DNA of 64,000 nt from an uncultured Alphaproteobacteria bacterium (GTDB lineage: Bacteria > Pseudomonadota > Alphaproteobacteria > Rs-D84). Of the stretch, positions 9,953 through 48,065 are shown one piece after another. The DNA lies in NCBI GenBank assembly GCA_949878575.1, contig CATLAX010000002.1:357634-421633 (forward strand), read 5' to 3'. The translations under genes and the position numbers were made by a program. Below the pieces are notes generated by a model. That model was not told the DNA's origin and ran no database searches. It was given only the letters and a program-made list of their open reading frames with translations. Every line of letters begins with the position of its first letter. Position 1 is the first letter of the stretch.

Positions 9953-10169
9953 TTTTTCCTCCATGGTTTTTAGTTAATAAAAACACCGCCGTGATGAAAG
10001 GCGGTTGGAGGTTGATTACTACGAAAACGATAGTGCTGCTTATTCATATATATCACAGCCCTCCAACCAATTATGGAGTTAAAAAATGTTTTCAGAGGTA
10101 ATCACACCTCACACCGGTAATCGTCCGATGCGATAAAAACTATATCAAAATAAAATTAATATATGCAAA

Positions 10170-10200
10170 TAAAATCCCCCGTTTGGGGGGATTTTTATTA
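10170..10200. terminator. Hairpin terminator nearly identical to the one at 9701-9733 (AAAATCCCCCGTTTGGGGGGATTTTTATTA); terminates the large cysteine-rich gene
   Basis: Same GC stem/loop sequence as 9707-9724, A/T-run flanks; immediately after stop of ORF 10198-13686 (-). Confidence 0.55.
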
Positions 10201-13200
10201 GTCGGTCAGGGCCGTATCAATCAAATCGCCGTATTGCCCGACCATTTCGTTGCCGACCATACAGTTTAGATGGTTACCGACATCGGCCATAAAGGCGTCA
10301 TAGGCTTCTTTTTCAACCTTGTCCAGTTTGGCATCCTGGACGCTTTTGGTCGCCTGGTACGTCAGTATTCCACCAGCGGTGGCTGTAACCGCGCCACCAA
10401 CCAGATTTGTTATAGAACGGTTTCTGGCCGCTTTCTTTTTAGCGTCTTCATCGGGCTCCGCACTCAAACACGCCGCATGCAGTTTTTGCATAGCCGCATT
10501 AGCTGCCTTTTGCGCATCTTCAACAGCCTTTGACTTGGTGTTATAAGTTTTGTTCATCTCCGCCAAATTATCGTTATACGCTTTTACACTATCAGCATCA
10601 CTTTCGCATATCGAATATGTATACTGTACATCTGTCACATCCGAACGATCACAATCATCTGTTAAAGATATAGGTGTTCCTCTATGGTTCTTACAATTTT
10701 CAGGTTCGCCTTTTTTAAATTTAGCTCCACACGCAAACATACATGTTGTTTCTATCAGTGTAACTGTTTTGCCCGGATTTATAGCTTTTATTGTTGCTAT
10801 TCTGCGCGGATCTTGCAACGAAGTACAATTATCTGTTACGGTTTTTTCCTTGTCGGTTACAGCCGCCGGCATATCAGAAACAGCATTTTGATAGGCTATA
10901 TGTTTGTCGGTCACCTCACTGATAAGATCGGACATTTCCTCCTTTGCATCCCCTTTATTTTTGGAATACAGGTCTTTCAATTCACGGGCAGCTTTTACTG
11001 CACGAGTCATATAGGCGGATCTGTCTTCTGCCTTTGTTGATGTCATATAATTTGATGCGGCTGTTGTACATCTATTTACAATGTCACCGGCATCTTTAAT
11101 AGATGTGCTACCGTTTGTCCCCAGCAAACCGCCCAAGAAACCGCTGTTCTGCATTTTGTCCGTGGCAAAGCCACCCAGAACGCCGCTGCCAACCACGCCA
11201 GCCAGTGTCGTCCATGCTCTGGTGCGGCTGTTACCGCGGGCCGCATCACTGCGCGCGTCATCCGCAACCGAATTCGCCAGTTTTTCCAGCGCATCACCCG
11301 GTATCCATGAACCGCATGTAAACGCATCACCCGCCGCAAAGTATGCCGTTGACCAGTCAGAGCCCTTTGCTATAACGTCTTGGATCCGTTTGTCATCGGA
11401 CTGCAGCGTTACACGCACACGGCAGAACGATCCGTATATATCATTGCTGGCCGCGAACTGGTTCGGTTTCAGACCGGATACCGCATAACCCTTTGGCACC
11501 GTGTTTGATTTCAGCTTTACCCACAGGAACGTGCTGCCCAAATCATTTTTGCCCAGGATGCCGCCGTTGTTTGACGACATGCACTTGTTCTGTTCGCGTG
11601 TTAATTTCGCGTTGTACTTTGCCTGAGCCTCTTTTTCCAAATCATAAATCAGGTCTTTGAACAACGTGGACGCCGCCTGGGTTTCAACATACGTTGTGTA
11701 TGAAATCATCACAGGCTGGTCATAAATATTGCCCGCGGCATCAACCGTATAGCACACGCCCTGATCCGTGCCACCCTTTGACGTGCACAGCGCGTTGCCG
11801 TTTTCATCCACTGCCGCAACCTGTTCCGTGTTGGCGGTGATTGCCGTCGCGGCGCCGGCGTCAATCCAGCCTTCGCGTACGTTGCCGGCCCCGCCCCAGC
11901 TGGATGCGGACGAATTGTTCGCAATTTTCAACTTGTTGCGTTCAATGGCCAAATGTTCTTCGCATACTGACGCGGATTTTACCGTATCCAGGCACAGGCC
12001 AAGAACGATTGTGTAATCCAAAACGCCGCCCACCTTGTTCATGGATTTGTCAAAAGACGCCTCGCCGGTGTTGGTCAATGAAGAATACACATCCGTACGG
12101 TTACGATAGCAGTTCTGGTAATCCGCACCGCACATTGATTTTACGCAAGATGTCGCAACCGCCTGGCACTGGCGCTTCATCGTGGCGATGGCCGCGTCGC
12201 TGTAACTGCTGGCCAGGGTGGCGTTCAATGACGCAATCACGCCGATTGGGTCGTTGCCGCCTTCCTCATACTCAGGGAACAGCGTCGTAAACGCATCGTT
12301 GTTTATATATGTATAAGAATAGCTGCCCGTCTTGTTCGGGTTCGCCGCCGCATACTTGCAGTATGCGTCCGTGTTTACGACCGCCTCGCACCCGGTTTTC
12401 AATTCCGCGTACGTGGCGCTGTTGTTAATGGATTTGTCCTTGTTGCCGAACACCTGGCTGTAACAGGCCGCGCCGGAACCGGAACCGCAGATGCGCATTA
12501 CGCATGTCTTTATCGTGTCCGTGCATTTTTCCTTTGCCTTGGTGTCAAACTTGTCAACCAAATCGGCGATTTTTGCACGCATACCGGCATTCATGCGGGC
12601 GGCGTACGCCTCGTCGTAAATTTCTTCCTGATTATCCTCATCCTTTAACTGGGACGATGTCGGCATCTGGCCGTTGCCCAGAAACGTCGCATAGCAATAT
12701 TTGTTTGAACCGATTGTATCCATACAGGAATTCTTGATATATCCCGCGATGCTGGATTTGGATATAATATCCGTTCCAGCCAGCGACACCGGCAGGGCCG
12801 CAGTGCTTTCCGCCGTTGCGACGCCCTGATTAATTGACTCTACCAGGCTAACCGTCGTGGTTGTGCTGTTTTCATAGCATTTGTACGGATTTGTCGCACA
12901 CGCGTTCAAGATACACTGGTCAACAACCTTGTAACATGTTGAAACGGCGTTAACCGCGGCCAGCGCCGCGCCCTCTGCAATCATTTCGCCGATGCGCGAC
13001 GTGGCGGACGGCGTTGTGGACGTGTTCGCGGAACCGAACAGCTCAATCAATCCCTCTGACTGGCAGCGGGCCAGTGTGGAATCACAAAACACGCGCTGCT
13101 TTCTAAATTCCTTGTCCGTGGTACATAATTCAAAATCATTCCCGCAGACACTGTCCTTCTTTAAACATGCGGTATAGCGTTTTACACATGTGGACGTGTC

Positions 13201-13686
13201 GTATTTGTTGGATATGGCCGCACCGATAATTAACTGGCCCAGAACACTGCCGTCGGTCGGGTATGTGTAATCCGTAACCTCGCCATAACTGTTTTTAGAC
13301 GCAACCGTGGACAGCGCCGTGACAGTTCCCGTTCCAAACAGGCTGGATACTCCGGCGGTGCTGCACTGGGCCAGCGTGGACAAACACTGCGGCATTTTGC
13401 CGTGGAACAAAACCTTGGTCGTGCATTCTTCAAAGTCAGAGCCGCATGCGTCCCCACCCTTCATACAATTCGTGTACGCGTCAATGCACTCTGCATTCGC
13501 CAACAGGTTTGACGTCGTTGTCGTGGTGCCGCTGGTACTGGTGCCGGCGCCGGTAATGTATGACGTCATTGTCGGCATGCGCGACGACGCGGTGCCAATA
13601 ACACTGGGCCGCGCGGTCAGTGCATAAGATGCCTGAACCGTTGTCAAAACAGCCAGAAAACCAAACGATTTTGTAAAGAGACTCAT
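10198..13686 (-). CDS. Large (1162 aa) secreted cysteine-rich repeat protein, function unknown (candidate surface/adhesin or effector protein)
   Basis: N-terminal signal peptide (MSLFTKSFGFLAVLTTVQASYA), S/T-rich stretch, then two clear ~60-aa six-Cys repeats (C-x4-T-x-C-x6-C-x3-FE-x-CTT…C-x-STLA-x-C…LFG) and further paired-Cys modules; C-terminal Gly/Ala-rich hydrophobic segment. Confidence 0.7.
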   Translation of the reverse strand: MSLFTKSFGFLAVLTTVQASYALTARPSVIGTASSRMPTMTSYITGAGTSTSGTTTTTSNLLANAECIDAYTNCMKGGDACGSDFEECTTKVLFHGKMPQCLSTLAQCSTAGVSSLFGTGTVTALSTVASKNSYGEVTDYTYPTDGSVLGQLIIGAAISNKYDTSTCVKRYTACLKKDSVCGNDFELCTTDKEFRKQRVFCDSTLARCQSEGLIELFGSANTSTTPSATSRIGEMIAEGAALAAVNAVSTCYKVVDQCILNACATNPYKCYENSTTTTVSLVESINQGVATAESTAALPVSLAGTDIISKSSIAGYIKNSCMDTIGSNKYCYATFLGNGQMPTSSQLKDEDNQEEIYDEAYAARMNAGMRAKIADLVDKFDTKAKEKCTDTIKTCVMRICGSGSGAACYSQVFGNKDKSINNSATYAELKTGCEAVVNTDAYCKYAAANPNKTGSYSYTYINNDAFTTLFPEYEEGGNDPIGVIASLNATLASSYSDAAIATMKRQCQAVATSCVKSMCGADYQNCYRNRTDVYSSLTNTGEASFDKSMNKVGGVLDYTIVLGLCLDTVKSASVCEEHLAIERNKLKIANNSSASSWGGAGNVREGWIDAGAATAITANTEQVAAVDENGNALCTSKGGTDQGVCYTVDAAGNIYDQPVMISYTTYVETQAASTLFKDLIYDLEKEAQAKYNAKLTREQNKCMSSNNGGILGKNDLGSTFLWVKLKSNTVPKGYAVSGLKPNQFAASNDIYGSFCRVRVTLQSDDKRIQDVIAKGSDWSTAYFAAGDAFTCGSWIPGDALEKLANSVADDARSDAARGNSRTRAWTTLAGVVGSGVLGGFATDKMQNSGFLGGLLGTNGSTSIKDAGDIVNRCTTAASNYMTSTKAEDRSAYMTRAVKAARELKDLYSKNKGDAKEEMSDLISEVTDKHIAYQNAVSDMPAAVTDKEKTVTDNCTSLQDPRRIATIKAINPGKTVTLIETTCMFACGAKFKKGEPENCKNHRGTPISLTDDCDRSDVTDVQYTYSICESDADSVKAYNDNLAEMNKTYNTKSKAVEDAQKAANAAMQKLHAACLSAEPDEDAKKKAARNRSITNLVGGAVTATAGGILTYQATKSVQDAKLDKVEKEAYDAFMADVGNHLNCMVGNEMVGQYGDLIDTALTD

Positions 13687-13712
13687 TCTGCTCGCTCCAT
13701 ATTTTATATTTT

Positions 13713-13741
13713 ATTATATCATATAAAAGAGACGCAGACAA
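13713..13741 (-). promoter_or_regulatory. Candidate sigma70-type promoter for the cysteine-rich gene (TTGTCT-17-TATAAT on minus strand)
   Basis: Read on the minus strand: -35 TTGTCT, 17-nt spacer, -10 TATAAT, about 30 nt upstream of the ATG at 13686. Confidence 0.3.
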
Positions 13742-13767
13742 ACAAAATAATAAACTTTTGCGGTGTT

Positions 13768-14730
13768 TTATTCACCGTCATCCAGCACGGCGCGCAACGT
13801 CGCCATGTCATCCGGCAACGCGGCGCGGAAACGCATGGGCGCACCGCTGACGGGATGTGCAAATTCCAAAATTTCCGCATGCAGCATCTGGCCGTTGTGT
13901 TCGCGTAAAAATTCCAGCAGTTCCGGATTTTTCACCGTACCCAGTCGTGAGGCTCCGCGCCCGTAGAGCGGATCGCACAGCACCGGGAAACCGTGCGCGG
14001 ACAAATGAACGCGTATCTGGTGAGTGCGCCCTGTAAACAGCGTGCAACGCAGCGCCGCCACGCCCGCGCGCGGCCACACGTCCATTACGTTTACAGCCGT
14101 ATGCGCATCGCGGCCGCCTGTCTTTACCATGCTCATTTTCTGGCGGTTGCGTGACGAGCGCGCAATATTGCCGGTAATGTCCGCCCCGGTCCAGTTCGGC
14201 ACCCCCCATACAAACGCGACATATTTTCGCGTTAAATCGTGTGTGGAAAAAGTCTTTACCAAACCGCGGAACGCAGCATCAGATTTTGCAAAGACCATGA
14301 CACCGCTGGTGTCCTTGTCCAGCCGGTGCGCAACCCCCGGACGCGTCACCCCGCCAAGCGGCGACAACGGCGTGTGTGCCAGTATGTTCTGAACCAGCGT
14401 CCCGGTCTTGTTCCCGGCGGACGGATACATGACAACCCCGCGCGGCTTGTTCACGACGATGATATCGTCATCCTCGTACAAAATGTCCAAATCAAAATCG
14501 CTGGATATATTCTCAGACGCCACATCGGACGCACGGGCGGGCGGAATTTCAACAACAAATGTGTCGCCGGGGCGAACCTTGTCCGAAAAACGCACCTGGC
14601 GACCGTCGCGCGTTACAGAAAAACGCTGAATCTCGCTGCGCGAAAATTCCGGCATCTGGGCCGCCAAAAACTTGTCCAGACGCACACCCGCGGACGCAGA
14701 ATCCACTAAAAATTCACGAACATTTGTCAT
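13768..14730 (-). CDS. rluD: 23S rRNA pseudouridine synthase, RluA family (RluD/RluC-like)
   Basis: S4-like N-terminal domain then RluA-family catalytic motif (GVAHRLDKDTSGVMVFAKS); 320 aa. Confidence 0.85.
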   Translation of the reverse strand: MTNVREFLVDSASAGVRLDKFLAAQMPEFSRSEIQRFSVTRDGRQVRFSDKVRPGDTFVVEIPPARASDVASENISSDFDLDILYEDDDIIVVNKPRGVVMYPSAGNKTGTLVQNILAHTPLSPLGGVTRPGVAHRLDKDTSGVMVFAKSDAAFRGLVKTFSTHDLTRKYVAFVWGVPNWTGADITGNIARSSRNRQKMSMVKTGGRDAHTAVNVMDVWPRAGVAALRCTLFTGRTHQIRVHLSAHGFPVLCDPLYGRGASRLGTVKNPELLEFLREHNGQMLHAEILEFAHPVSGAPMRFRAALPDDMATLRAVLDDGE

Positions 14731-15203
14731 TTATAACTGTCCCAATCCGGCCCGCGCGTACATTTTGACATGTCTATGACGAAATCACGTTCACCCGTCA
14801 CCGGACAGGTTAAGACGCCTTCTGTGGCGGCCTCGTCCGCGTTGCGGGCGGCGTTGCGCCATGCAAACCGAATTTCCGTCGGCGCATGAACGCATGCGAT
14901 GCGCAAATTCCCGTCATGCTGGCCCGGGCGCGGCCCCAACCATACGCGCACAGACCCGCCCAGGCCATAGCACGGAAAACCGTCCAGATAATACAGAACC
15001 AGACCGCGCCCGATTATCTTGTTGTTATTTGCATACTTAAATTCCCCGCGGTATTCATGCAGCGACAGGCCCGTTACCGCCTGCCAGTCGGTACTGGTGG
15101 AAAAAACGCTGATACGCGGGGCGGGCGCCGGGGCGTTTGCACACAGCGCGGGCGACGCCGCAAGAACAGAACACAACAGGGCGGAACAAATTTTTTTCAT
15201 CAT
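14727..15203 (-). CDS. Hypothetical secreted protein (158 aa, signal peptide)
   Basis: MMKKICSALLCSVLAASPALCA signal peptide; 4-nt overlaps with the genes on both sides (translational coupling). Confidence 0.5.
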   Translation of the reverse strand: MMKKICSALLCSVLAASPALCANAPAPAPRISVFSTSTDWQAVTGLSLHEYRGEFKYANNNKIIGRGLVLYYLDGFPCYGLGGSVRVWLGPRPGQHDGNLRIACVHAPTEIRFAWRNAARNADEAATEGVLTCPVTGERDFVIDMSKCTRGPDWDSYK

Positions 15204-15718
15204 TGCATATCCGTTTGGTCTTTTAGTTCAACAGTTATTTTTTTCACCCCGTCCGTCGGCGCGGACAGGGTATGCGAAAAATCAACGGACGCGCCGGAAT
15301 CCAGCAACGTTGCAGACGGCATGAATTTCTGGCGTGCGATTTCCGCACCATCCGCGTCGCGTGAAACGATTATCAAATCCGGAACGCCATAAATATCAGC
15401 CGATCTGTTTGTCACGCGGCCGGAAACAACAAAATGCGCGGTGCCGGCCGCATCTATTACGGAACGGATTCCGGTCACAGTCGCAACCAGCGGTCGCGCC
15501 TCTTCCATTGCGCGCGCACGATGCCGCGCAACAACCGCCACGGAAAAAACTATCGCGGCCAACGCGGCCGTCGCCGCCGCAATCAGCATTAACCACGCAC
15601 CGCGGCGCCCGCGCGGAACCACCGTCCACGCGCGGCCGCACACCGCGCATTCAACACGCCCACGCACGGTCGCCGGCACACTGTATTCCGTTTTGCAAAA
15701 ATCACATGCTATCTTCAT
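15200..15718 (-). CDS. MJ0042-type zinc-ribbon plus DUF3426-like membrane protein
   Basis: N-terminal CxxC…CxxC zinc ribbon (MKIACDFCKTEYSVP…VECAVCGRAWTV), one TM helix, C-terminal beta-rich domain typical of DUF3426 proteins. Confidence 0.6.
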   Translation of the reverse strand: MKIACDFCKTEYSVPATVRGRVECAVCGRAWTVVPRGRRGAWLMLIAAATAALAAIVFSVAVVARHRARAMEEARPLVATVTGIRSVIDAAGTAHFVVSGRVTNRSADIYGVPDLIIVSRDADGAEIARQKFMPSATLLDSGASVDFSHTLSAPTDGVKKITVELKDQTDMQ

Positions 15719-15742
15719 ATTTACACCTTATACCACAAATGA

Positions 15743-17050
15743 CTATAAATTCAACCGGCGATATTTTGCACGGACTTTTTCCTGTATCTCGCTTATGGCG
15801 CGCATGTAATCCGCGGCGGTCGCGTTCTTGTTTGCCGCAACGGCCCCGAATATCTGCGCCGCCTGGGTGCCGGTGCCCTCGGCGGCGGACACGTACGGCA
15901 CCATGCGCCCCAGTTCGGACAAGGACAGGTCCAGAAAATTCGCCTTGCCGGCGGACGCATCCCAGTAATACTGTGAATTTACGGAATCTTCCAAACGCTT
16001 TTTTACAACCAGGCGCGGCGTAATTGAACCGGCAAACCCAACCGTTACAAACATTGCATCAATGCGTCCGTACGTCATGTCCAGCGTCTGATTTATTTTA
16101 AGCATGGCGACATCGCCGCCGTCATCAACGGACAGCCCCGCCAAAGTCATGTTTGTAACATACAGGTCGTCAACCGTCAGGCTTGAAAACTTTGCCGTAT
16201 CGGCCAAAGAGACATTGCCGGATATTTCCATGTTTTTGGAATCAGACGACAATGCGCCCGCAACGGTTGAAAACGACGCCGACAACTGCTTGTCAACAGA
16301 TGTTCGGTTTTGAAAAACAACCTTGTCCGCGACAATTTTTCCCACCCCCAGCGTTTCGTCAAAACTGATTGCGCGCCCGTTAACGAAAGCCCCGTCCAAA
16401 ATGTCATGTCCGCCCAAACTCAGCGCGGAGAGCATCGTCGCATCCGCACTGTCCGCGGACGGCACGCGCCACAGATACTTTGCATTGTCGCGCACAGCCC
16501 CGGTTGTTTCCACAATACCGTCCGCATCCGCCAACCCCAAATCCACCGTTGACGCGCGCCACGCGCCAAACGCCCCGTATGCGCGCCCGCGGTCCAAAAA
16601 TCCCATATTGTCGCCGCCCGTGTTTACAATTTCGCGCGTGCGCAGCGGACTGATTTTATCATCATTTAAAACAACCACGCCCTGCAACGTGGCAAGACCG
16701 CCGGCATCGGCCGATTTCAACACGCGCAGCTGGTATTCCGCGCCGCGCTGGGCGACCAGATCCGCCGACACGCCGTACGGCACCAAATCCGCCAGCGACA
16801 GGCGAACGATGTTTTTCCCGACCGGCGCCAGCAGTTCGTCGCGATTGGCGACAATATATCGTTCAAGCGCGGTCTGCACACCCTGCATCTGGCGCGTTAC
16901 GGCAACATTTTCCGCACGCCGCACCGCGTTTTCATGATATCTAAAAATGAACGGTATCACAATCATCGCCAGCGCAACGCTAAGCATCAGTTCAACCAGC
17001 ATTCCGCCCGCCTGATGCGGGGCGTTAAAAAACGTTTTTACTGTTTTCAT
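15743..17050 (-). CDS. Pilin-like paralog A: large protein with prepilin-type N-terminal hydrophobic helix
   Basis: Short basic leader ending in G-G then MLVELMLSVALAMIVIPFIF (class-III-signal-like, Glu near +5); a ~400-aa G/D/S/T-rich body sharing motifs with the next two genes; start chosen at Met 17050 (GGTGGAG RBS); ORF opens at 17080. Confidence 0.6.
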   Translation of the reverse strand: MKTVKTFFNAPHQAGGMLVELMLSVALAMIVIPFIFRYHENAVRRAENVAVTRQMQGVQTALERYIVANRDELLAPVGKNIVRLSLADLVPYGVSADLVAQRGAEYQLRVLKSADAGGLATLQGVVVLNDDKISPLRTREIVNTGGDNMGFLDRGRAYGAFGAWRASTVDLGLADADGIVETTGAVRDNAKYLWRVPSADSADATMLSALSLGGHDILDGAFVNGRAISFDETLGVGKIVADKVVFQNRTSVDKQLSASFSTVAGALSSDSKNMEISGNVSLADTAKFSSLTVDDLYVTNMTLAGLSVDDGGDVAMLKINQTLDMTYGRIDAMFVTVGFAGSITPRLVVKKRLEDSVNSQYYWDASAGKANFLDLSLSELGRMVPYVSAAEGTGTQAAQIFGAVAANKNATAADYMRAISEIQEKVRAKYRRLNL

Positions 17051-18242
17051 TGTCAAGCTCCACCCCGCCCCAGCCGGCATCGGTTATTTTTGAAAACTCA
17101 TTTTTTTTCACCGGCGCGGGATACTTTGCACGCTCTATGTTTAACTGTGAAAAACGTGGCGGCGTCGTGGACGGGAAAGTCCAACCACCGACCTTTAGCG
17201 GCGATTCCGTGGACATCAACAACTCGCCCGACAGAGTCAACCCGAAATTATCGTAAAAAACTATTTCATCCGCCGTAATAAACGGCGCCGCAACAGAACT
17301 AACAGAAATTCCGTCAAACCCGCTGATTGTGCGCGCAGTATCCGATTTTAAGGTCAAATCGCGCGCGACATTCACGCTGCGCCCAACGGTCGCACGGTCT
17401 GCAATTATCCGGCCGCGCGTCGTATAACCGCTGCCGTTTAACGTCTGGGCGGAAATGTTTTTAAACCCCGTCACGTCACCCGTAACACGCAGCGCCCCCA
17501 AATCCGCACGCCCGCCGTCAATGTTCGCACCGGACGAAAAATACGCGGCGTCCGCCATAACCTCCTGTGTTTCTATAAATGTGGCGGCGGCGGAATTTAC
17601 CTTTGCCGACTTTGCCGTAACGCCGCCAACATCGTAAACATTATGCCCGCCCATATTCAAATCGCGCATCATGACATTCAACATGTCTTCGCCGGACGTG
17701 CCGCGGTGCAGGTATTTTTCCGTGTCCATTCCGGAAACATCGCGCGACACCCTGTATATTATGTCGCCCGCGCTAAAATCAGGCGCCGTCACCGCCCATG
17801 ATGCGCCATACGCTATCCCATCAGATGCAACGACGGCCGCGTCAACCCCGATGCGCCGCGCAATATTTTCCGCACGCAGCACGTCACCACCGACATTAAA
17901 CGCCAGATACACATCCGTCACCGTCGCACCGGATACGGCATATTTGTCTATAAATCCGGCGACAGGCGCGCTTGAAATCATGGCCAAATCTTCGTCCGTC
18001 ATGCGAATCTGCGCCTCGTCCGGCCATGCGTCCGCATGCATGCGCACAAAGTTTAATGTGGCCCCGCGGACGTCAATTATATCTTTTGCCATTCGGGCAT
18101 CAGAGGCCATGCGCGCCGTCTGTAAAACCTGGCTGTATACGAACGGCGCGGCCATCGCAATTATGGCCATCGCCAACAGCACCTCCAGCATTCCGGCGCC
18201 GCATGATTCATCTTTAAAAATCAGCGTCTTACATGCAGCCAT
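17025..18242 (-). CDS. Pilin-like paralog B
   Basis: …ESCGAG-MLEVLLAMAIIAMAAPFVY N-terminus parallel to paralog A; shared internal motifs (DLNMGGHNVYDVGG etc.); overlaps upstream gene. Confidence 0.6.
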   Translation of the reverse strand: MAACKTLIFKDESCGAGMLEVLLAMAIIAMAAPFVYSQVLQTARMASDARMAKDIIDVRGATLNFVRMHADAWPDEAQIRMTDEDLAMISSAPVAGFIDKYAVSGATVTDVYLAFNVGGDVLRAENIARRIGVDAAVVASDGIAYGASWAVTAPDFSAGDIIYRVSRDVSGMDTEKYLHRGTSGEDMLNVMMRDLNMGGHNVYDVGGVTAKSAKVNSAAATFIETQEVMADAAYFSSGANIDGGRADLGALRVTGDVTGFKNISAQTLNGSGYTTRGRIIADRATVGRSVNVARDLTLKSDTARTISGFDGISVSSVAAPFITADEIVFYDNFGLTLSGELLMSTESPLKVGGWTFPSTTPPRFSQLNIERAKYPAPVKKNEFSKITDAGWGGVELDNENSKNVF

Positions 18243-19584
18243 CTCGTCCTTCCATCAAGCACTGTTTTATGTCTATCCTTTGTTCCAGACGATGCCAGTA
18301 GACATACTGGCAAATTATGTACTGCGACAGGCTGCGCTGATTATAATTGCCGTCCAAATCGGAAATCACATCCTTGCAGTCAACCATTTTCCCGGTATTG
18401 TCGGCCGGATCCGCAATAATTTCAAACGCACCGTTGTCAATGCCGTCAACGTACACGTCCGGCAGCACGGACGTCCCCGCCGGCCGCAAATCCAAAATAA
18501 CAGCACCTGTCCCCCCCGCCAGCAGCGCATCGGACGTCTGGTCCCGCATGGTGACATTTGACGCGACAAGGGTGTCCGTTTCCAGGCCGCTGCGCGAACT
18601 GTATTCCAATTCATCCGGACTGATGTAAACATCCTGGCCGCGGGCGGCGTTTATGTACGACGACACGTCCAGGCGTTCAACGGAAAAGTTCACACGGTCC
18701 GCCACGACATTCCCGCGCACATTCCATTTGCCGGGTCCGTTAAACCCCGTGCGACCGGACGTCATGGCAAAATCATAAACGGACGCCGCGCCGGCCACAA
18801 AATTACCAGTATCACCGAAACGCGCAATCGTGCGCGCATCCAGTCCGGACGCCGTCAAATTTCCCCGCGCCAGTGTCAGCGCCGCCTCGCCGGTGCGGCT
18901 TTGAAATATGGCGCGGTTCGCGGTCAGGCTGTCTATCTTGTTTTTTATTTTGCGCCCGTTTTCAGCCCCCGTCACAGACAGCGTGCCCGCCGTCATCGTA
19001 TCAAACACGCCGCGGCGCGCAACCACGGCACCGGCATTGTCAAGCACGAACCCGCCCATGTTTAAGTCCGTTAAGAAAGCCCCGGCGTCAATATCCGTTT
19101 CGTTACGGCGGACAACGTCAGAGAACCCATCGTCCAGGGCGATGCCGACACTGACCACGTCGCCGGATGCGTCCGCGTAAAAACCGATGCGCCGCGCCAG
19201 TTCCGCACGCGCCACCCCGGACAGATCGCCGCCGGACAGTTCCAGACGCGCCGATATTTCCGCATCGGTCTTGTTTATGACCAGCGCAATATCCTGGCCC
19301 AGCGCCGTGCGCGGCACAAACCCCAGCGGCAGGCCGTACGGTTCCAGCAAATCTGCAAAGTCATCACCCGTGACAACGGTTGTGTCATACCGGATATGGC
19401 GCGCGTTTTCACGAATAAAAATTCGCGCGGCGGTTGCGGCGACATCAACCTGGCGCGTGGTGGAATACATCTGGGCATCCCTGTCACCAACCGCCAGACG
19501 GGATGCAAAAAACGGAATAAACGCAAAAACCAGGGCCAGCGCCAGCAATGCCTGCAATAAAAAATTTCCGCTTTGCCTGGACAA
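18229..19584 (-). CDS. Pilin-like paralog C
   Basis: MSRQSG-NFLLQALLALALVFAFIPFF (6-aa leader ending in G, as in the type IV pilin at 21708); internal motif DLNMGGFVLDNAG shared with paralog B. Confidence 0.6.
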   Translation of the reverse strand: MSRQSGNFLLQALLALALVFAFIPFFASRLAVGDRDAQMYSTTRQVDVAATAARIFIRENARHIRYDTTVVTGDDFADLLEPYGLPLGFVPRTALGQDIALVINKTDAEISARLELSGGDLSGVARAELARRIGFYADASGDVVSVGIALDDGFSDVVRRNETDIDAGAFLTDLNMGGFVLDNAGAVVARRGVFDTMTAGTLSVTGAENGRKIKNKIDSLTANRAIFQSRTGEAALTLARGNLTASGLDARTIARFGDTGNFVAGAASVYDFAMTSGRTGFNGPGKWNVRGNVVADRVNFSVERLDVSSYINAARGQDVYISPDELEYSSRSGLETDTLVASNVTMRDQTSDALLAGGTGAVILDLRPAGTSVLPDVYVDGIDNGAFEIIADPADNTGKMVDCKDVISDLDGNYNQRSLSQYIICQYVYWHRLEQRIDIKQCLMEGRDGCM

Positions 19585-19743
19585 AATTCAATCCCCTCCG
19601 AACATACCCGCAGGATAGCAACAGAAAAAAAATATTGCAATCGGTTTTAAGATGCTTTAATCTGTGCCACGGACGCATGGCGGCAGCAAAGAAAATCCCC
19701 ATGCAGAGAAAAAGTATTTCCTGATAATCAAAGAAAAACATAA

Positions 19744-20040
19744 ATGCAGAACAAAAAAAATCAAACCTCTGTCGGCCAGATGATTCAACGTTGCCACAAA
19801 TGGCGTCAAAAAAGAAAACAGTACATGGATCAGGCGCGCCAGACAGCGGACGAAATAGAACGCGAACGCTTAATGCAGACGGCCGAACACTATGGCCGAA
19901 TCGTTGCCGCCGAACAGGGCAAAATTGATTCCACACGCGGCCCCGCGGACAAGACCGCCGCCCCCGCCCCGGCAGAAGAGGCGACCGATGCGGACGATGA
20001 TGAAAACGCGTTCCCCGATTTTATTTCAAATCTGAAATAA
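19744..20040 (+). CDS. Small charged protein, DUF4167-like (uncertain)
   Basis: …RLMQTAEHYGRIVAAEQ… resembles the conserved AE(N/H)Y…R core of alphaproteobacterial DUF4167 proteins; start uncertain. Confidence 0.4.
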   Translation: MQNKKNQTSVGQMIQRCHKWRQKRKQYMDQARQTADEIERERLMQTAEHYGRIVAAEQGKIDSTRGPADKTAAPAPAEEATDADDDENAFPDFISNLK

Positions 20041-20113
20041 CGTCCGGCCCCCGTCTTTTAATTGTTGAAATTTCACGTGCGTCTGCTATGCTTTTTCGCA
20101 AAGGAAGAATTGC

Positions 20114-21688
20114 ATGGATACGAATTATACCGTTTTGGCGCGCAAATACCGCAGTCAGGATTTTCAAACACTTATCGGCCAGGATGTTCTGGTAAAAACG
20201 CTGACCACGGCGATAAACACCGGCCGCATTGCGCATGCATATATTTTCACCGGAATACGCGGGACTGGAAAAACCAGCACGGCCAGAATTCTGGCAAAGG
20301 CGCTGAACTGCCTGTCGGGCGACCGTGCAACAGCCACACCGTGCGGCGTATGTGAAAACTGTCGTGCAATCGCCGCCGGGCAGCATATTGACGTAATGGA
20401 AATTGACGCCGCGTCACACACGGGCGTGGACAACATGCGCGATATTTTGGACGCCGCACAGTACCGCCCAACAAACGGCCGGTACAAGGTATACATCATA
20501 GACGAAGTGCATATGCTGTCCACATCCGCATTCAACGCATTGCTAAAAACACTGGAAGAACCGCCGGCGCACGTAATATTCATTCTGGCCACGACCGAAA
20601 TCCGCAAGGTTCCGGTTACCATTTTATCCCGGTGCCAGCGTTTTGATCTGGTGCGCGTGCCGGTTGAAACACTAAAAAAGCATTTTGCCTGGATTGCAGA
20701 GCAGGAAAAGGTAACCCTGTCGGACGAGGCGAACGAACTGTTGGCGCGCGCGGCGGACGGTTCCGTGCGCGACGGTCTGTCACTGTTGGACCAGGCGATT
20801 GCGCAAACCGGCGGCAATGTTGACGAGGCCGCGGTGTTAAGCATGTTAAAACGCGCCGACCGCGGCGTGGTGATTGACTTTATGAAAACACTGCTGTCCG
20901 GCGACGTGGCGGCGGCCCTGGCAAAGGCGGATACAATTTACAACAACGGCGCCGATTTGACCATGCTAATGTCTGATATGATGGAATGGACGCACTGGGC
21001 GACACGCATGCATCCGGCACTGCATGCGGGCGACGGCGCATCATCACCGTACACGGCGGACATGCGCGAACAAATGCGCGGCGTCATAGCAAAGACAAGT
21101 TTAAACACTTTGTCGCGCATATGGCAGGTGCTGGTCGCCGCAGTGCCGGAAATGCAGGCGGCAGGCAACCAGAAGCAATGCTTTGACATGCTGATTGTGC
21201 GCTGCATGCATATTGCGGAAATCCCCCCGATTTCCGAGTTGATGAAACAGGAATCGCCACGCACACCCGCGCCGCAAACGCCACAGGCACCCGGGACGCC
21301 GGCACCGCAATCCCCGGCCGCCACATCCGCACCGGCGCAGCAGACGACGCAGTGCCAGATAGCATCCGCCGTGGCGCTGGGCGATGCGCTGCAGCAGTCG
21401 CGCGAAATCCTGTTATACTCGTATTACAGCGGCAATATAGAGGTTTGTGAGTTTGCAGACGGCCATATAAAATATTTTGACCGCAAGGGCGATGCGGATT
21501 TCCCGCACCGTCTGGCGGAATGGCTGCTCAAAAAAACAGGCCACCCGTGGCAGCTGGAGCGCCAGGAGCAGTCACAGCACGCGCACACCATGACGGAACA
21601 GAAACAGGAAGAACTGGCCGCGGACCCCATGGTCGCCAGTGCAATGAACCTGTTTGCGGACGCGCAAATTTTAGGCGTCGGAAATTAA
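20114..21688 (+). CDS. dnaX: DNA polymerase III subunits gamma/tau
   Basis: AAA+ clamp-loader motifs (FTGIRGTGKTSTARILAKALNC, zinc-binding Cys cluster, SRC motif), 524 aa. Confidence 0.95.
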   Translation: MDTNYTVLARKYRSQDFQTLIGQDVLVKTLTTAINTGRIAHAYIFTGIRGTGKTSTARILAKALNCLSGDRATATPCGVCENCRAIAAGQHIDVMEIDAASHTGVDNMRDILDAAQYRPTNGRYKVYIIDEVHMLSTSAFNALLKTLEEPPAHVIFILATTEIRKVPVTILSRCQRFDLVRVPVETLKKHFAWIAEQEKVTLSDEANELLARAADGSVRDGLSLLDQAIAQTGGNVDEAAVLSMLKRADRGVVIDFMKTLLSGDVAAALAKADTIYNNGADLTMLMSDMMEWTHWATRMHPALHAGDGASSPYTADMREQMRGVIAKTSLNTLSRIWQVLVAAVPEMQAAGNQKQCFDMLIVRCMHIAEIPPISELMKQESPRTPAPQTPQAPGTPAPQSPAATSAPAQQTTQCQIASAVALGDALQQSREILLYSYYSGNIEVCEFADGHIKYFDRKGDADFPHRLAEWLLKKTGHPWQLERQEQSQHAHTMTEQKQEELAADPMVASAMNLFADAQILGVGN

Positions 21689-21707
21689 CTTCATGGAGGA
21701 AAAACAT

Positions 21708-22166
21708 ATGCGGCAGGAATCGGGACGTTCTTTGATAGAAATAATCGGAATAATGGCCATCGGCGCCATCATGACGGCCAGTGCGGTTTCACTTTACAAC
21801 ATGATACGCGGCAACCAGACACGCCGCATCGCCGCCGCCGAAATGCAGCAGATTGTCCGCGACACGCGCATGCTGATGGAAATGCGCGGCGACTATACCG
21901 GAATTTCCGTAGACTATCTGATTAAGGCCGGCGCATTAAAATCAGATGCGGCACCGCTGGGCGGGGCCTGGTCCGTCACCGCCGAAGAAGGCGGAAAAAA
22001 ATTTGCAATAAATTTAACCGCGCTGTCGGCGGGCGAATGCGATTACTTTATAACCGCCGCGCCCGCATGGGCGGCCCAGATTCGCGTAAACGGCATGCCG
22101 GCGGATTCCACCACCAGCAACTGTTTCTCGTCACGCACAAACGAAATATCCTTTATAGCGGAATAA
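21708..22166 (+). CDS. Type IV pilin / pseudopilin (class III signal peptide)
   Basis: MRQESG|RSLIEIIGIMAIGAIMTASAVS: 6-aa leader, Gly-1, Glu+5, hydrophobic helix; GGAGG RBS 8 nt upstream of the ATG at 21708; C-terminal Cys pair. Confidence 0.75.
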   Translation: MRQESGRSLIEIIGIMAIGAIMTASAVSLYNMIRGNQTRRIAAAEMQQIVRDTRMLMEMRGDYTGISVDYLIKAGALKSDAAPLGGAWSVTAEEGGKKFAINLTALSAGECDYFITAAPAWAAQIRVNGMPADSTTSNCFSSRTNEISFIAE

Positions 22167-22844
22167 ATGACACGCAAAACCGTCTTTTTATTGCTGGCAA
22201 TGATGCTTTCCGGATGCACCCCGTATGTCAGTCCGCCGCGTGACACATGGCGGACTTATCTGCGGGGCGCATCCATGTCGGATATGACGGACGGCGCGCG
22301 CGTTGCAAAACGTCCCGTTTATATGGGCGCCGGCGGACGCCTGATGGGCGACGTGGTAAATGTTGCACCGGGCGCAGAATACGGCGACAAGGTTGCGAAC
22401 GACAACATGTACGCGGTGGCGTACATGGCTGATTTGGAATACGAACTGTACGACGCCCTGCGCAAGCCGGGCATATCCGTTCAGCGGGCCGGCACGGACG
22501 TGGTCGTTATTTTGGTGCGCGACGCCATAATGGAAATGGACGTTGCGGAAATTTCAGACACCGGCGCTGACACACTGCAAACAATATCAAAAATATTAAA
22601 CAAGTATGATGCCACGTTCATTGAAATCGCCGGGTATACGGACGCAATGCGCGACACCGCGGCCGCGACGGCACTGTCCGGCGACATGGCGATGCGAACT
22701 GGCGTGTTCATGGCCCGTCACAGGGTAAATCCCGTGCGCATGTTTATTGTCGGCCGCGGCGCCGCGCGCCCGATTGCCGCCCAGGACGACATAGGCCGCC
22801 TGACGAACAGACGAATTGAAATGCGCATCGCACCGGCGCGATAG
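22167..22844 (+). CDS. OmpA/MotB-family peptidoglycan-binding lipoprotein
   Basis: Lipobox LLAMMLSGC; C-terminal OmpA-like domain (…IAGYTDAMRDTAAATALSGDMAMRTGVF…NRRIEMRI); start abuts pilin stop. Confidence 0.7.
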   Translation: MTRKTVFLLLAMMLSGCTPYVSPPRDTWRTYLRGASMSDMTDGARVAKRPVYMGAGGRLMGDVVNVAPGAEYGDKVANDNMYAVAYMADLEYELYDALRKPGISVQRAGTDVVVILVRDAIMEMDVAEISDTGADTLQTISKILNKYDATFIEIAGYTDAMRDTAAATALSGDMAMRTGVFMARHRVNPVRMFIVGRGAARPIAAQDDIGRLTNRRIEMRIAPAR

Positions 22845-34515: not shown

Positions 34516-36726
34516 CTATCCCAGATTTCTTGTCTCGTGCGTCTGGGGGTCGTATATGCGCGGCGCGCCGCCATACCCCATTGCCGCATGATGCGACGGG
34601 ATTAAAAATTCCGGCAACGGCGACGATTCCCCCATCGCCATGTATCCCGCCAGGCGCGGATCCTGCCACGCCTGTTGATGATCGGCCTCAATCGGGCGGT
34701 TATAAAACCCCTGGAATATGACCAGCTGTTTTTTCTTGTCCAGCTTCATGATGTCCATAGGCGTGTACAGCAATTCTTCGCCGGTTTCCTCTTTTTCCTT
34801 GCCATCCGGGCCTTTAACCGTCTTTATCTTCATCTTGTACCCCATCATGTCCGAGAAGCGTTTTGCCGTATCCGGGTCGTTCTGGCGCAGGACTATTTTG
34901 GCCGCGGTTGTGGATATGATTGTCGCGGCGGCATCCTGGCCGTATTTTTCCGCAATCTGGTGCAAATCCTGGCCTATAATCAGGTATGATATTTTTTGGC
35001 CGCGCCCCAGGTCGGGTCCCTGAATCACCGCCTGCAGCTTTTGCATTTTGGGCATTTCATCCAACAGGAACAGCACCGGATACGGGCCCAAGCGCTGGCC
35101 GTCGCGAACGGTTTCCGGCGCGTTGGCCAGCAGATACGACGACATTAACTCTATAAATATTCCGGTAATGGGATTCAACGCCTCGGCATCAACCATGTTG
35201 ATGGACAGGTATACCGTCACGGGCTTGATTTTTCCGTCACGCGGGTCAACCAGGCCGCGCATATCTGAAAAATGGAAATCAGAATGGCTGGTGCGGTTGC
35301 GCACGGCCGCGTTTCTAAATATGGACAATCCGGCCATCATTGTTGACAGAATACTGCCGCGTTCCTTGTCCGGGGTGTTGGCCAGCTGCGTTAATTCCAA
35401 AATCGCGCGGTGGGCGTATGAATAACGGCGCGCCTCTTCCACCGCGGCCAAAAACAAATCCTTCATCGGATCCGCCATCATCACCATCTGGTCGCCCTGG
35501 CGGCGGCGGTTTTCCAAATCCTGGGCGATGGCAATCTGCGACGCGTTCAGCCAGTCCAGAATCATGGACAGCGACGCCTCTTTGCCCTTCCACGCGGGCG
35601 GTATGTTTTCCCACGTGCCGATATGAACATAGTTCATCGCGTTTAATTCCCCGCGCGCCAACAGCGCACTGGCCGCGTATGCGTTCGGATCGTTTATCAT
35701 CGCCAGATAATAGTCCGACAGAACGGTCGCATCCTCTGCATCAAACGTGCCGGCGGAAATGCGCGAATAGAAATAATCGTCAGCCTTGGCCCGCTCTATC
35801 TTTGACACGATGAACTGAACCATCCCGGACAACGCCGCGCGCCCGGATATTGTCCAGTGCGGATCCGCGGACGAACTCTGCTTGTCCGCAATCAGAACGT
35901 TGCAGATTGAATCAATGTACAAGTCACGCTGTTCGGTGTTAAACGGCACGTGTTCAGGCGACAGCGGATTCCACGACGGATAATATATGCCGCGTTCCGG
36001 ATCATCCTGGCCCGCCCAGTTCATAATGAACACCGGCCCAACCGTCGCACGGTACGCGGACGATTTCTGTTTCAATTCCGGTTTCGGATCGTTGATAATC
36101 ATTGAAACGTTCGGACAGTCAAATATTGTCGGCAAAACGACACCCTGTGTTTTACCGGTCCCGGGGGGCGCCACGCACAATGCGGACAGACATTCATCCA
36201 TCATCAGCGGCTTTTTCTTAAAATAGCCCAGCACCATCATGAACCCATCCCACAGACCCATTTTCTTAATGTCTTCCAGCGTCGCCTTGTTGGATGATTT
36301 TGCATCAAACTTGTCATTGCCGTGCGGATTAAATTCCTTTACCAACGTGGCGTCCGCCAGGAAATAATACGCAATTATCGGCAACAGCGGCGCCATGCAC
36401 GGCAGGTCGGTCCGCGCAACGCACCGGCCAATCCACGCCGGGATTTCCGCCACCACCGACATCCCCAGCGTTGTCACCATGTTGCCTAAATATATCCACA
36501 TCCACCGCCACGACGCCGGCGAAAAGCCGTAACGCCAGAAATGTTCTATTATAAACGACAAAGCAAACGCCAGCGCCGCCGCGCACCATATGCCGATGGC
36601 CCAGCGCAGCTGCCAAAATATGGATGCCAGCGGCGTGCGTTCGTGTTCCTTGTACGCGCTGGACTTGAAAATATTGAGACCCTTGGACGAACCGCCGGCC
36701 GATAAAATCTTGAACTTCTCTGCCAT
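34516..36726 (-). CDS. virD4: Type IV secretion coupling protein (VirD4/TraG/TraD family ATPase)
   Basis: 736 aa; N-terminal TM helices; Walker A CVAPPGTGKTQGVVLPT; Walker B LFLLDEMPKM; overall TraG/VirD4 architecture. Confidence 0.85.
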   Translation of the reverse strand: MAEKFKILSAGGSSKGLNIFKSSAYKEHERTPLASIFWQLRWAIGIWCAAALAFALSFIIEHFWRYGFSPASWRWMWIYLGNMVTTLGMSVVAEIPAWIGRCVARTDLPCMAPLLPIIAYYFLADATLVKEFNPHGNDKFDAKSSNKATLEDIKKMGLWDGFMMVLGYFKKKPLMMDECLSALCVAPPGTGKTQGVVLPTIFDCPNVSMIINDPKPELKQKSSAYRATVGPVFIMNWAGQDDPERGIYYPSWNPLSPEHVPFNTEQRDLYIDSICNVLIADKQSSSADPHWTISGRAALSGMVQFIVSKIERAKADDYFYSRISAGTFDAEDATVLSDYYLAMINDPNAYAASALLARGELNAMNYVHIGTWENIPPAWKGKEASLSMILDWLNASQIAIAQDLENRRRQGDQMVMMADPMKDLFLAAVEEARRYSYAHRAILELTQLANTPDKERGSILSTMMAGLSIFRNAAVRNRTSHSDFHFSDMRGLVDPRDGKIKPVTVYLSINMVDAEALNPITGIFIELMSSYLLANAPETVRDGQRLGPYPVLFLLDEMPKMQKLQAVIQGPDLGRGQKISYLIIGQDLHQIAEKYGQDAAATIISTTAAKIVLRQNDPDTAKRFSDMMGYKMKIKTVKGPDGKEKEETGEELLYTPMDIMKLDKKKQLVIFQGFYNRPIEADHQQAWQDPRLAGYMAMGESSPLPEFLIPSHHAAMGYGGAPRIYDPQTHETRNLG

Positions 36727-46832: not shown

Positions 46833-48050
46833 TTATTCATATCGCAGACTGTCAATCGGGTTTAGTTTGGCCGCCTTTAACGCCGGCACCACCCCGGACG
46901 CCAGTCCCACAATCACCGCAACAGACACCGACAGCACCACCGGCCAGATTGAAAACGGCACGTTGTATCCCAGGATAAGACGCCCCACCCCCTGGGACAG
47001 GCCCACCCCCAGAATCAGCCCCGTCATTGAGCCGATAAAGGATATGAATATGGATTCTGACAGGAACTGTATTATTATCTGGCGTTCACGGGCGCCGATG
47101 GCCTTGCGCACGCCGATTTCACGCGTACGTTCCGCAACAGACACCAGCATCATGTTCATAATGCCGATTGAACCCACCAACAGTGACACCGCCGCAATCG
47201 CAATCAGCAGCATTTTTAAATACCCCGTAACGGTGTTCATTGTTTCCATAACCTGTTTCATGTCCATAATCTGGAAATCATCCGCGGCGTCGTCCTTTAA
47301 CCGGTGCCGGTCGCGCAACAGTGCGGTTATCTGGTTTGTTGCCACGGTATTGTCTGCATCCGGATACAGTTTTAATGCAATCATGCCGACCGCGTTCGGA
47401 AAACGGCTGCCCTGCAGGCGCTTTTTTAATGTTGTTATCGGAATTATTATCATGTCGTCCTGGCTGCCCATGGCGGAATCGCCCTTTGCCCGGGTCATGC
47501 CTATTACGACAAAAGGCGTGTTTTGAACACGTATAACCTGGCCCACGGGGTCCGCCGGCAGGTCCAGTTCTTTTGCCGTTGTGGGCCCGATTACGGCATA
47601 TGTGGCCGCATTACGCACGGCTGCGTCGTCAAAGAACGTTCCCTTGTCCATTTCAACGTTTTGAACCGTCGTATAGGCGGGATACGCCCCGACCATGGAC
47701 GTGGCCCAGTTTTTATTGCCATAGACCACCTGGGCCGCGCTGTTCTGAACAGGCGTTATCGCCATAACATCCGGCAGGCGTCCTATAAATTCCGCATCAT
47801 CCGTGGTTAAGGTCTGGCGGTTGCCACTGCGCACGCCGCCCGTTTGCGCCGCACCGGCGCGAATCATAATAGTGTTCGTCCCCAGGGATGAAAACTGGTC
47901 CGTTATCTGCCGTTGCACGGTTTCACCCACGGCAACCATTATAACCACCGCCATAACGCCGATAACAATGCCCAGAACCGTTAAAAACGAGCGCATCTTG
48001 TTCCCGGAAACGGAAAGCCATGATTCCTTAAAAATATCGTTAAACGTCAT
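46833..48050 (-). CDS. MacB-type ABC transporter permease (FtsX family)
   Basis: N-terminal TM helix, large periplasmic domain, C-terminal 3-TM FtsX domain. Confidence 0.85.
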   Translation of the reverse strand: MTFNDIFKESWLSVSGNKMRSFLTVLGIVIGVMAVVIMVAVGETVQRQITDQFSSLGTNTIMIRAGAAQTGGVRSGNRQTLTTDDAEFIGRLPDVMAITPVQNSAAQVVYGNKNWATSMVGAYPAYTTVQNVEMDKGTFFDDAAVRNAATYAVIGPTTAKELDLPADPVGQVIRVQNTPFVVIGMTRAKGDSAMGSQDDMIIIPITTLKKRLQGSRFPNAVGMIALKLYPDADNTVATNQITALLRDRHRLKDDAADDFQIMDMKQVMETMNTVTGYLKMLLIAIAAVSLLVGSIGIMNMMLVSVAERTREIGVRKAIGARERQIIIQFLSESIFISFIGSMTGLILGVGLSQGVGRLILGYNVPFSIWPVVLSVSVAVIVGLASGVVPALKAAKLNPIDSLRYE

Positions 48051-48065
48051 TGTTTCCCCCCGGGG

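Follow-up and report, generated by a model that had tools for sequence, protein, structure and literature searches.

Do the three overlapping genes designated here A, B and C encode subunits of a surface filament and, if so, which part of such a filament would they form? The question arises in Candidatus Enterousia, which, together with its Rs-D84 relatives, is widespread in the guts of humans, ruminants, birds and termites. To our knowledge, none of these bacteria has ever been cultured. The genome of Candidatus Enterousia, an alphaproteobacterium of the order Rs-D84, measures ~0.9 Mb and lacks most biosynthesis, and the bacterium is proposed to depend on a partner (PMC12306168). The published reconstruction of Rs-D84 genomes gives type IV pilus genes for another lineage only and mentions none for Rs-D84 (PMC12306168); further literature on Rs-D84 yielded nothing on pili or secretion. 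It is proposed here, at a probability of roughly 0.55, that A, B and C are PilV-like prepilins forming the heterotrimeric tip of a type IV filament, which would attach the host to a partner cell or surface.

The window, that is, the whole 64-kb stretch of DNA that was analysed, carries the three genes as tandem, overlapping open reading frames (ORFs) on the minus strand, as the preliminary description had it (Table 1). The longest ORFs of A, B and C encode 445, 405 and 451 aa, and neighbouring frames share 14 nt (C and B) or 26 nt (B and A). The longest ORF of A starts at 17080; its true start is placed at 17050 (Met11) because the homologues of A are 435–441 aa long and align from Met11. The protein bodies are indeed rich in Gly, Asp, Ser and Thr, which together make up 31–34% of A, B and C versus 23–29% of neighbouring proteins. 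Promoter and terminator scans of the locus returned hits at chance level only.

Table 1. Positions of the trio, its N-terminal signals and neighbouring genes in the window. A slash follows the conserved Gly of each signal.
Feature	Position	Strand	Description
Gene C	18229..19584	-	PilV-like large pilin, 451 aa, TTG start, signal SG/NFLLQ
Gene B	17025..18242	-	PilV-like large pilin, 405 aa, signal G15/A16...E20
Gene A	15743..17050	-	Closest of the trio to PilV, 435 aa from Met11, signal QAG/GMLVE
Class III signal and hydrophobic alpha1-N of C	19483..19584	-	Residues 1-34
Class III signal and hydrophobic alpha1-N of B	18123..18242	-	Residues 1-40
Class III signal and hydrophobic alpha1-N of A	16934..17050	-	Residues 1-39 counted from Met11
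PilS-like type IV pilin	21708..22166	+	Candidate major subunit, 152 aa from Met6, signal MRQESG/RSLIE, two invariant Cys
Bitopic protein	15200..15718	-	Co-transcribed neighbour of uncertain relevance; N-terminal CxxC...CxxC zinc ribbon, TM 39-66, periplasmic DUF3426/FxLYD-like domain
158-aa secreted protein	14727..15203	-	Co-transcribed neighbour of uncertain relevance; four invariant Cys

The bitopic zinc-ribbon protein follows A in Enterousia and in loci L088 and L094, and in L095, where five genes stand between it and the trio, it is still with rluD. The 158-aa secreted protein gave no family or structure match. A 1162-aa neighbour was considered as a pilin-like protein and rejected, having a Sec-type signal (read from its N-terminus) and no similarity to a pilin-like giant in L090. 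A second copy of the trio at 46.8–51.3 kb, suspected from ORF lengths of 405 and 445 aa, was also rejected; judged by the look of their translations rather than by a family search, these ORFs probably encode an ABC permease of the MacB type and an outer-membrane factor resembling TolC.

Each protein of the trio begins with a short basic leader ending in Gly, followed by ~20 hydrophobic residues that form its one hydrophobic segment, and these prepilin-type N-termini are genuine class III signals. The position of Glu, at first regarded as imperfect, is exactly +5 from the conserved Gly in A and in B (CG/AGMLE in the latter), and the Gln noticed in one paralogue belongs to C. In family alignments of ~80 species, A and B show little or no variation at Gly -1 and Glu +5; the C family (~80 species) keeps Gly -1, with Gln +5 invariant. 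Absence of Glu5 is known for tip-capping subunits, such as GspK. The pattern G-x4-[EQ], with a run of 16 uncharged hydrophobic residues behind it and close to the N-terminus, occurs in 4/277 ORFs (>=70 aa, six frames, whole window), namely the trio and the pilin at 21693/21708, and with just these four carrying it the signal is not a product of chance. The curated N-terminal methylation models PF07963 (N_methyl) and TIGR02532 gave nothing above threshold for the trio (B, E = 0.18 on TIGR02532; A and C, no match), in which residue +1 is Gly, Ala or Asn, not Phe or Met. It is proposed that A, B and C are made as prepilins and that a prepilin peptidase would cut them after the conserved Gly.

An uncleaved signal anchor might account for the same N-termini. 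On this alternative, the trio are not filament subunits at all; they are periplasmic or envelope proteins tethered to the inner membrane, in a lineage without type IV filament machinery, either through loss or from the outset. Searches for a prepilin peptidase, assembly ATPase, platform protein and secretin found none in the 64-kb window and none within 10 kb of the trio in >85 loci, which is as a signal anchor would predict, as are the published account of Rs-D84 genomes and the failure of every curated pilin model to pass threshold. However, a signal anchor would hardly keep Gly -1 and Glu/Gln +5 (near-)invariant at fixed spacing in four families, across ~80 species and distant lineages. The homology of the trio to PilV and its co-conservation with a PilS-like pilin, both described below, also argue against this alternative, which is considered rather improbable.

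The three proteins were described as paralogues, and this stands by profile–profile comparison, whereas their pairwise similarity is weak and significant in BLASTP for A and B only (E = 1e-6). Comparison of the trio profiles with hhalign gave probabilities of 98.2% for A–B (E = 3.5e-14), 95.8% for A–C (E = 8e-9) and 75.9% for B–C (E = 2e-5), values that identify A, B and C as ancient paralogues at the level of sequence profiles. The motifs reported as shared proved less evenly distributed, YLWR/YLHR being present in A and B alone and DLNMGG in B and C, while A has LSLGGHD. In B, the motif YLHR...LNVM..DLNMGG occupies residues 177–199, and the version in A reads YLWR...ATMLSxLSLGGHD. Purifying selection is strong and even over the full length of each of the three proteins.

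Scans of A, B and C against Pfam, NCBIfam and PHROGs returned nothing above threshold, and their homologues are all annotated as 'hypothetical'. The Pfam model Shufflon_N (PF04917) matched neither the trio nor a single one of the 30 A-family members scanned. The trio is nonetheless not the wholly new family that was first envisaged, since profile comparison assigns A, B and C, as distant relatives, to the PilV / Shufflon_N superfamily, which comprises minor pilins and tip adhesins of the type IVb kind. Against a mixed PilV profile, hhalign gave 99.4% for A (E = 1e-21), 98.5% for B and 95.8% for C; against a control profile built from four annotated plasmid PilV proteins only, the values were 97.5% (E = 7e-12), 94.2% and 75.3%. 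The link from C to PilV, taken alone, is weak, at 75% with the independent profile. The HMM of A scored 37 bits on a PilV from Stutzerimonas. In a search of 1.84 billion representatives, the B profile returned only 169 matches, among them a protein named as a PilV tip adhesin and proteins with Shufflon_N (Pfam) scores of 7e-30, 1e-17 and 1.5e-7. One of these matches, P0495, belongs to a pil cluster of the type IVb kind that is complete and includes T2SSE, TcpQ, Secretin, PilO, T2SSF, PilS and PilM.

PilV of the thin pili of IncI-type R64 and TP114 resembles A and B in the prepilin signal (Gly -1, Glu +5) and in size, and its first 200–250 residues are homologous to those of the trio (hhalign 94–99% for A and B). 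The trio and PilV have in common the motif YL(Y/W/H)R...LN.M...(I)D(M/L)N(M)GG, which is present in A and B and partial in C and reads YLYR...LN.M.T.IDMNGNNI in PilV; by this alignment, the YLWR and DLNMGG motifs noted earlier are the PilV signature. The argument that pilins are usually below 200 aa, and that the trio is therefore of unusual size, was mistaken: type IVb minor pilins already reach ~390–550 aa, the four plasmid PilV genes encode 437–545 aa, and the solved chains of TcpB and CofB comprise 390 and 496 residues. Differences from PilV are equally clear. PilV is a single gene, whereas here there are three diverged paralogues, too divergent for the Pfam threshold, with Gln +5 in C and Gly, Ala or Asn at +1. 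The NCBIfam name for PilV is 'shufflon system plasmid conjugative transfer pilus tip adhesin PilV'.

AlphaFold models of the trio show confident pilin folds, with a long N-terminal helix on an antiparallel sheet. In structure they come closest to CofA and TcpA, which are type IVb pilins, and to two minor pilins, CofB and TcpB. In C, a pilin domain (~5–150) is followed by a low-confidence middle region (152–376) and a domain (~377–445) with four invariant Cys; in the trio as a whole, the middle and C-terminal regions have pLDDT < 50. The architecture recalls CofB of the ETEC CFA/III pilus and TcpB of the V. cholerae TCP, large minor pilins in which an N-terminal type IVb pilin domain precedes further domains. 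Sequence homology to CofB and TcpB was undetected, however, as the A and PilV profiles miss both among PDB sequences; the matches of these searches were confined to the pilin N-terminal helix, and no PilV structure was found. Unlike CofB and TcpB, the trio has no detected H-type lectin domain and its genes adjoin neither a major pilin nor machinery.

The partner of PilV is a PilS-type pilin, PilV being the adhesin of a PilS pilus (PMC9045228), and a counterpart is encoded close to the trio. The type IV pilin reported at 21708 is PilS-like: its family alignment keeps G, S(+2) and E(+5) invariant, 19/25 members match PilS and 18/25 match N_methyl in Pfam (all under the curated cut-offs), and 7/8 matches of its profile among PDB sequences are pilins, including TcpA. 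It lies always directly downstream of dnaX and was found in 76 loci, counting those whose contig extends far enough. The order C-B-A is kept in all ~80 species-level genomes retrieved and out to distant "Rickettsiales" MAGs, within a chromosomal housekeeping context (dnaX, rluD, skp, lpxD). L088, L092, L093 and L094 carry orthologues of all three members in this order, and trios also occur in L091 and L095. Their distribution is narrow, and in sister lineages the paralogues are enlarged to 1000–1200 aa each. What is unusual here is an ancient, diverged trio of paralogues in fixed order on the chromosome, free of a shufflon or adjacent pilus machinery, in a host lineage with genomes of ~1 Mb.

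Homology of the trio to PilV, and of the pilin to PilS, might instead mark the remnant or cargo of an integrated conjugative element, encoding adhesins of a thin pilus that hold mating pairs together while DNA is transferred, as they do in IncI plasmids. A VirD4/TraG-type coupling protein is encoded at 34516–36726, and in L096 a true PilV relative adjoins a VirB-type type IV secretion system (T4SS). Such an origin is very improbable indeed, as phylogeny and synteny already count against it: the trio sits among the same housekeeping genes in ~80 species and distant MAGs, outside any pil operon, in contrast to the true PilV loci L004 and L096. Its GC content is ordinary (0.55–0.57 over 14–20 kb versus 0.45–0.57 over the window) and it is under strong purifying selection. 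A repeat search found no shufflon-type repeat family in 10000–22300, and no Rci-type recombinase or relaxase was present among the window ORFs scanned against Pfam. The trio also has no variable C-terminal cassettes; its C-termini are conserved, not hypervariable as in shufflon PilV.

A tip-adhesin role, as first suggested, remains the best reading of the trio. The hydrophobic N-terminal helices would allow A, B and C to be incorporated into a type IV filament; its shaft probably consists of the PilS-like pilin, whose gene follows dnaX. CofB forms a homotrimer that is the tip initiator complex (PMC6048534), and its three-fold stoichiometry equals the number of paralogues here. By analogy, one copy each of A, B and C may form a heterotrimeric counterpart of the CofB initiator, the difference being that three separate genes are involved. 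The heterotrimer is the likeliest arrangement because each paralogue has stayed an orthologous group of its own and the order C-B-A, with overlapping frames, is fixed. C, without Glu5, may occupy a position corresponding to GspK, which likewise lacks Glu5 and caps the GspI-J-K tip in type II secretion. The conserved C-terminal regions could then serve as an exposed adhesive module, and the likely role of the tip would be attachment to a partner cell or surface. As the middle and C-terminal regions have pLDDT < 50, the module and the trimer are both conjectural.

In another setting, the trio and the small pilin would together make up a pseudopilus in the periplasm, as part of a system akin to type II secretion. 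A, B and C would be its tip, comparable to GspI-J-K, and would push or recognise secreted cargo instead of building an adhesive pilus outside the cell. Three different minor subunits, one without Glu5, mirror such a tip, and the PilS-like pilin has a short leader. Against the T2SSI, T2SSJ and T2SSK families, the sole match for the trio was the N-terminal helix of B to TIGR01707 gspI (E = 0.021; 15 bits versus a 44-bit cut-off), which is not significant, and neither GspI-GspJ-GspK nor their type IVa minor pilin equivalents PilV/W/X match the trio at family level. GspI, GspJ and GspK belong to three different families, unlike the trio, whose members are paralogous to one another and similarly large. 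The significant homology is to PilV, the top structural matches are type IVb pilins, the pilin is PilS/TcpA-like rather than GspG-like, and neither a secretin nor GspE was seen nearby, in the 64-kb window. A pseudopilus is accordingly held to be quite unlikely.

A bolder and unlikely version of the filament-tip reading is that Rs-D84-type Alphaproteobacteria have a previously unrecognised, lineage-specific class of type IV filament, with a tip made of three ancient PilV paralogues. This tip would be an obligate heterotrimer and would dock the genome-reduced symbiont on its partner cell. The assembly machinery would be extremely divergent or borrowed, for example from the type IV secretion system to which the coupling protein in the window belongs. 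Standard annotation finds no pilus genes in Rs-D84-type bacteria, and under this version pilin-fold proteins would therefore work without a canonical type IV pilus machine.

Highly conserved, surface-directed and encoded in a genome of ~900 genes, the trio and the PilS-like pilin are prime candidates for the attachment organelle of Candidatus Enterousia. If the proposed tip is correct, it would be the first trimeric tip or initiator of a type IVb-like pilus to be assembled from three paralogues, each specialised, in place of a single protein. The PilV superfamily gains ~1000 'hypothetical' proteins per paralogue, together with related giant proteins.

The three tandem minus-strand genes of the trio, in the order C-B-A, are present as the preliminary description reported, with C and B overlapping by 14 nt and B and A by 26 nt. 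Homologues of A are 435–441 aa long and align from its Met11, so its start is most likely 17050. This B/A overlap differs from the 4-nt ATGA overlap in gene calls of relatives (locus L001), and the translation start of A in the host strain is therefore not fully certain. Three further genes follow A on the same strand, the first 24 nt after A and the other two each overlapping its predecessor by 4 nt; this layout suggests that C-B-A, the zinc-ribbon gene, the 158-aa gene and rluD form one transcription unit, for which promoter and terminator scans were uninformative.

Features of the window and of comparison loci (L090, L091, L095).
Feature	Sequence	Position	Strand	Details
C	window	18229-19584	minus	451 aa, TTG start
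B	window	17025-18242	minus	405 aa
A	window	15743-17080	minus	445 aa by longest-ORF rule
B/A overlap	window	17025-17050		
Zinc-ribbon/transmembrane protein gene	window	15200-15718	minus	downstream of A
158-aa secreted protein gene	window	14727-15203	minus	downstream of zinc-ribbon gene
rluD	window	13768-14730	minus	downstream of 158-aa gene
1162-aa protein gene	window	10198-13686	minus	Sec-type signal, 44 cysteines, Gly-rich hydrophobic stretches near C-terminus
98-aa basic protein gene	window	19744-20040	plus	
Small PilS-like pilin gene	window	21708-22166	plus	downstream of dnaX
VirD4/TraG-type T4SS coupling protein gene	window	34516-36726	minus	Pfam T4SS-DNA_transf, E = 2.5e-48; amid housekeeping genes
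MacA/MacB/TolC-like efflux set	window	46833-51322		read from translations
parB, parA, rsmG	window	51616-55012		read from translations; after efflux set
Pilin-like giants	L091	3551-14143		tandem trio
Pilin-like giant(s)	L090	10001-13441		
PilS-family pilin gene	L090	16709-17437		242 aa, long leader ending QYG↓RSMVE
Trio, and zinc-ribbon gene, unknown gene and rluD together	L095	1800-5933 and 9228-11530		distant Rickettsiales MAG

Each protein of the trio has exactly one hydrophobic segment, which is N-terminal. Alignments of 30 homologues each showed that Gly15, Ala16 and Glu20 of B are invariant (G↓A-x-x-x-E, with Glu at +5), that A reads ...RG↓(S/G)MLVE with an invariant Glu and a near-invariant Gly, and that C reads ...SG↓NFLLQ with an invariant Gln11 and a near-invariant Gly. 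The Glu position had been thought imperfect, a count taken from the second Gly; it is at +5 in both A and B. Gln(+5) of C is kept at the related locus L088, and Glu occupies this position in every member of the most distant trios. In a pattern search of the 277 window ORFs of at least 70 aa, the prepilin-type signal occurred in four: A, B, C and the small pilin.

Pfam, NCBIfam and PHROGs gave no above-threshold match for A, B or C; the ~900–1000 homologues of each all lack a name and a precomputed Pfam domain. Searching 1.84 billion representative proteins with a B profile returned only 169 proteins, whose distant members all share a G-x4-E N-terminus. Three of these matches score on Pfam Shufflon_N (PF04917; 7e-30, 1e-17 and 1.5e-7), and one is annotated 'pilus tip adhesin PilV'. 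One of these, P0495 (locus L096), is part of a classic type IVb cluster (T2SSE, TcpQ, secretin, PilO, T2SSF, PilS, PilM and PilV) that adjoins a VirB-type T4SS. Against a mixed PilV profile, A, B and C matched with probabilities of 99.4% (E = 1e-21), 98.5% (E = 3e-15) and 95.8% (E = 8e-9), respectively. A profile built from four annotated plasmid pilV genes alone, used to avoid circularity, gave 97.5% (7e-12), 94.2% (1e-7) and 75.3% (2.5e-5). The PilV consensus DYLYRxAVxGxPQLNxMxTxIDMNGNNI is the counterpart of the YLWR/YLHR and DLNMGG motifs noted previously in the trio. These profile matches and the shared motif therefore place A, B and C, at the level of sequence, as remote members of the PilV superfamily. 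The earlier proposal of a novel pseudopilin or adhesin family stands as regards pilin-like proteins that are plausibly tip adhesins, but not as regards a new family. Their lengths, previously considered unusual, are normal for type IVb minor pilins.

Among the trio, BLASTP detected A–B as the sole significant pair (E = 1e-6). Profile–profile comparison matched A–B (98.2%, E = 3.5e-14), A–C (95.8%, E = 8e-9) and B–C (75.9%, E = 2e-5) over 240–290 columns, the N-terminal two-thirds, and the three are ancient paralogues. AlphaFold2 models of B (121 sequences) and C (75 sequences) have a confident N-terminal domain (B residues 12–170, pLDDT 75–90; C residues 5–150, pLDDT 74–89), in which a helix of 55–59 residues is followed by the same order of strands and helices. 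The next ~220 residues are unmodelled in both (pLDDT below 50), and C ends in a confident domain with four invariant Cys. The low-confidence middle regions would be compatible with a fold formed only in an oligomer.

Relatives of B occur in 162 species-level genomes, all gut MAGs, named Candidatus Enterousia, 'Alphaproteobacteria bacterium' or 'Rickettsiales bacterium'; among them is the closed 958,618-bp chromosome OZ007020.1, which includes locus L071. The arrangement is near-universal among 80 retrieved loci, with the 98-aa gene, C-B-A, zinc-ribbon gene, 158-aa gene, rluD and a ~1100-aa gene on one side, and dnaX, the small pilin, an OmpA-like gene and skp on the other. Per-column conservation is 0.68–0.72 in A, B and C, close to the 0.77–0.79 of Skp and OmpA, and stays even along the length of the three proteins, with no hypervariable C-terminus. 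Trios of 479/422/439 aa (L088), 482/414/505 aa (L094) and 460/412/474 aa (L093) are C/B/A by HMMs of the three proteins. In L092 (494/493/484 aa) the second gene is B and the third A, and the first gets similar scores from the C and A models; L095 has a trio of 464/435/469 aa. The triplication is old, its order fixed and every copy retained, in more distant MAGs too. Giants of 1000–1236 aa with a G↓xxxxE N-terminus, found in L091 and L090 and once as a tandem trio (L091, 1236/1083/1188 aa), look like enlarged forms of the family.

In L095, five genes separate the zinc-ribbon/unknown/rluD group from the trio; a link of the zinc-ribbon and 158-aa proteins to rluD, not to the pilins, is therefore possible. 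The 98-aa gene is always divergent from C; its product retains 61–87% identity even in distant L088, its N-terminal 60 residues being almost invariant. The gene for the 1162-aa protein (relatives 1038–1211 aa), which immediately follows rluD in most Enterousia loci, yielded no family match and no pilin-like features, and may encode another surface protein of the lineage. The presence of parB, parA and rsmG places the window probably near the chromosomal replication origin.

With respect to machinery, the 64-kb window holds only housekeeping genes and the coupling protein, without a prepilin peptidase, GspE/PilB-type ATPase, platform protein or secretin, and no such genes lie near any trio locus. 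The coupling protein suggests a scattered, Rickettsiales-style T4SS in the host. One main rival explanation is that A, B and C are uncleaved, membrane-anchored proteins of a lineage without pilus machinery. However, conservation of Gly(−1) and Glu/Gln(+5) with constant spacing in four families would be unexpected of a plain signal anchor, which would also leave the PilV homology and type IVb pilin fold unexplained. On these same grounds it is concluded that A, B and C are prepilin-type subunits. The obvious candidate for a filament shaft subunit is the small pilin, MxxESG↓RSLIE, in whose family G, S(+2), E(+5) and two Cys are invariant. Members of this family match Pfam PilS (19/25) and N_methyl (18/25), all below curated cut-offs, and seven of its eight PDB sequence matches are pilins, including TcpA.

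The initiator and tip complex of a type IVb pilus is, in the case of CofB, a homotrimer (PMC6048534), and the PilS thin pilus has PilV as its adhesin (PMC9045228). By analogy with both, the fixed trio is most economically read as a heterotrimeric tip complex, in which C, lacking Glu5, would sit at the cap; the other main rival is that the trio forms a T2SS-like pseudopilus tip. A repeat search found no shufflon repeats near the trio, and no recombinase was present among the window ORFs scanned. The PilV-like set differs from known PilV in being chromosomal, triplicated and without a shufflon, and it belongs to gut Alphaproteobacteria with reduced genomes. Rs-D84 genomes are smaller than 1 Mb and miss most biosynthetic pathways, and the bacteria are probably obligate symbionts or parasites; type IV pilus genes were reported for a different lineage only (PMC12306168). 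For the trio itself, attachment to a partner cell is the proposed function.
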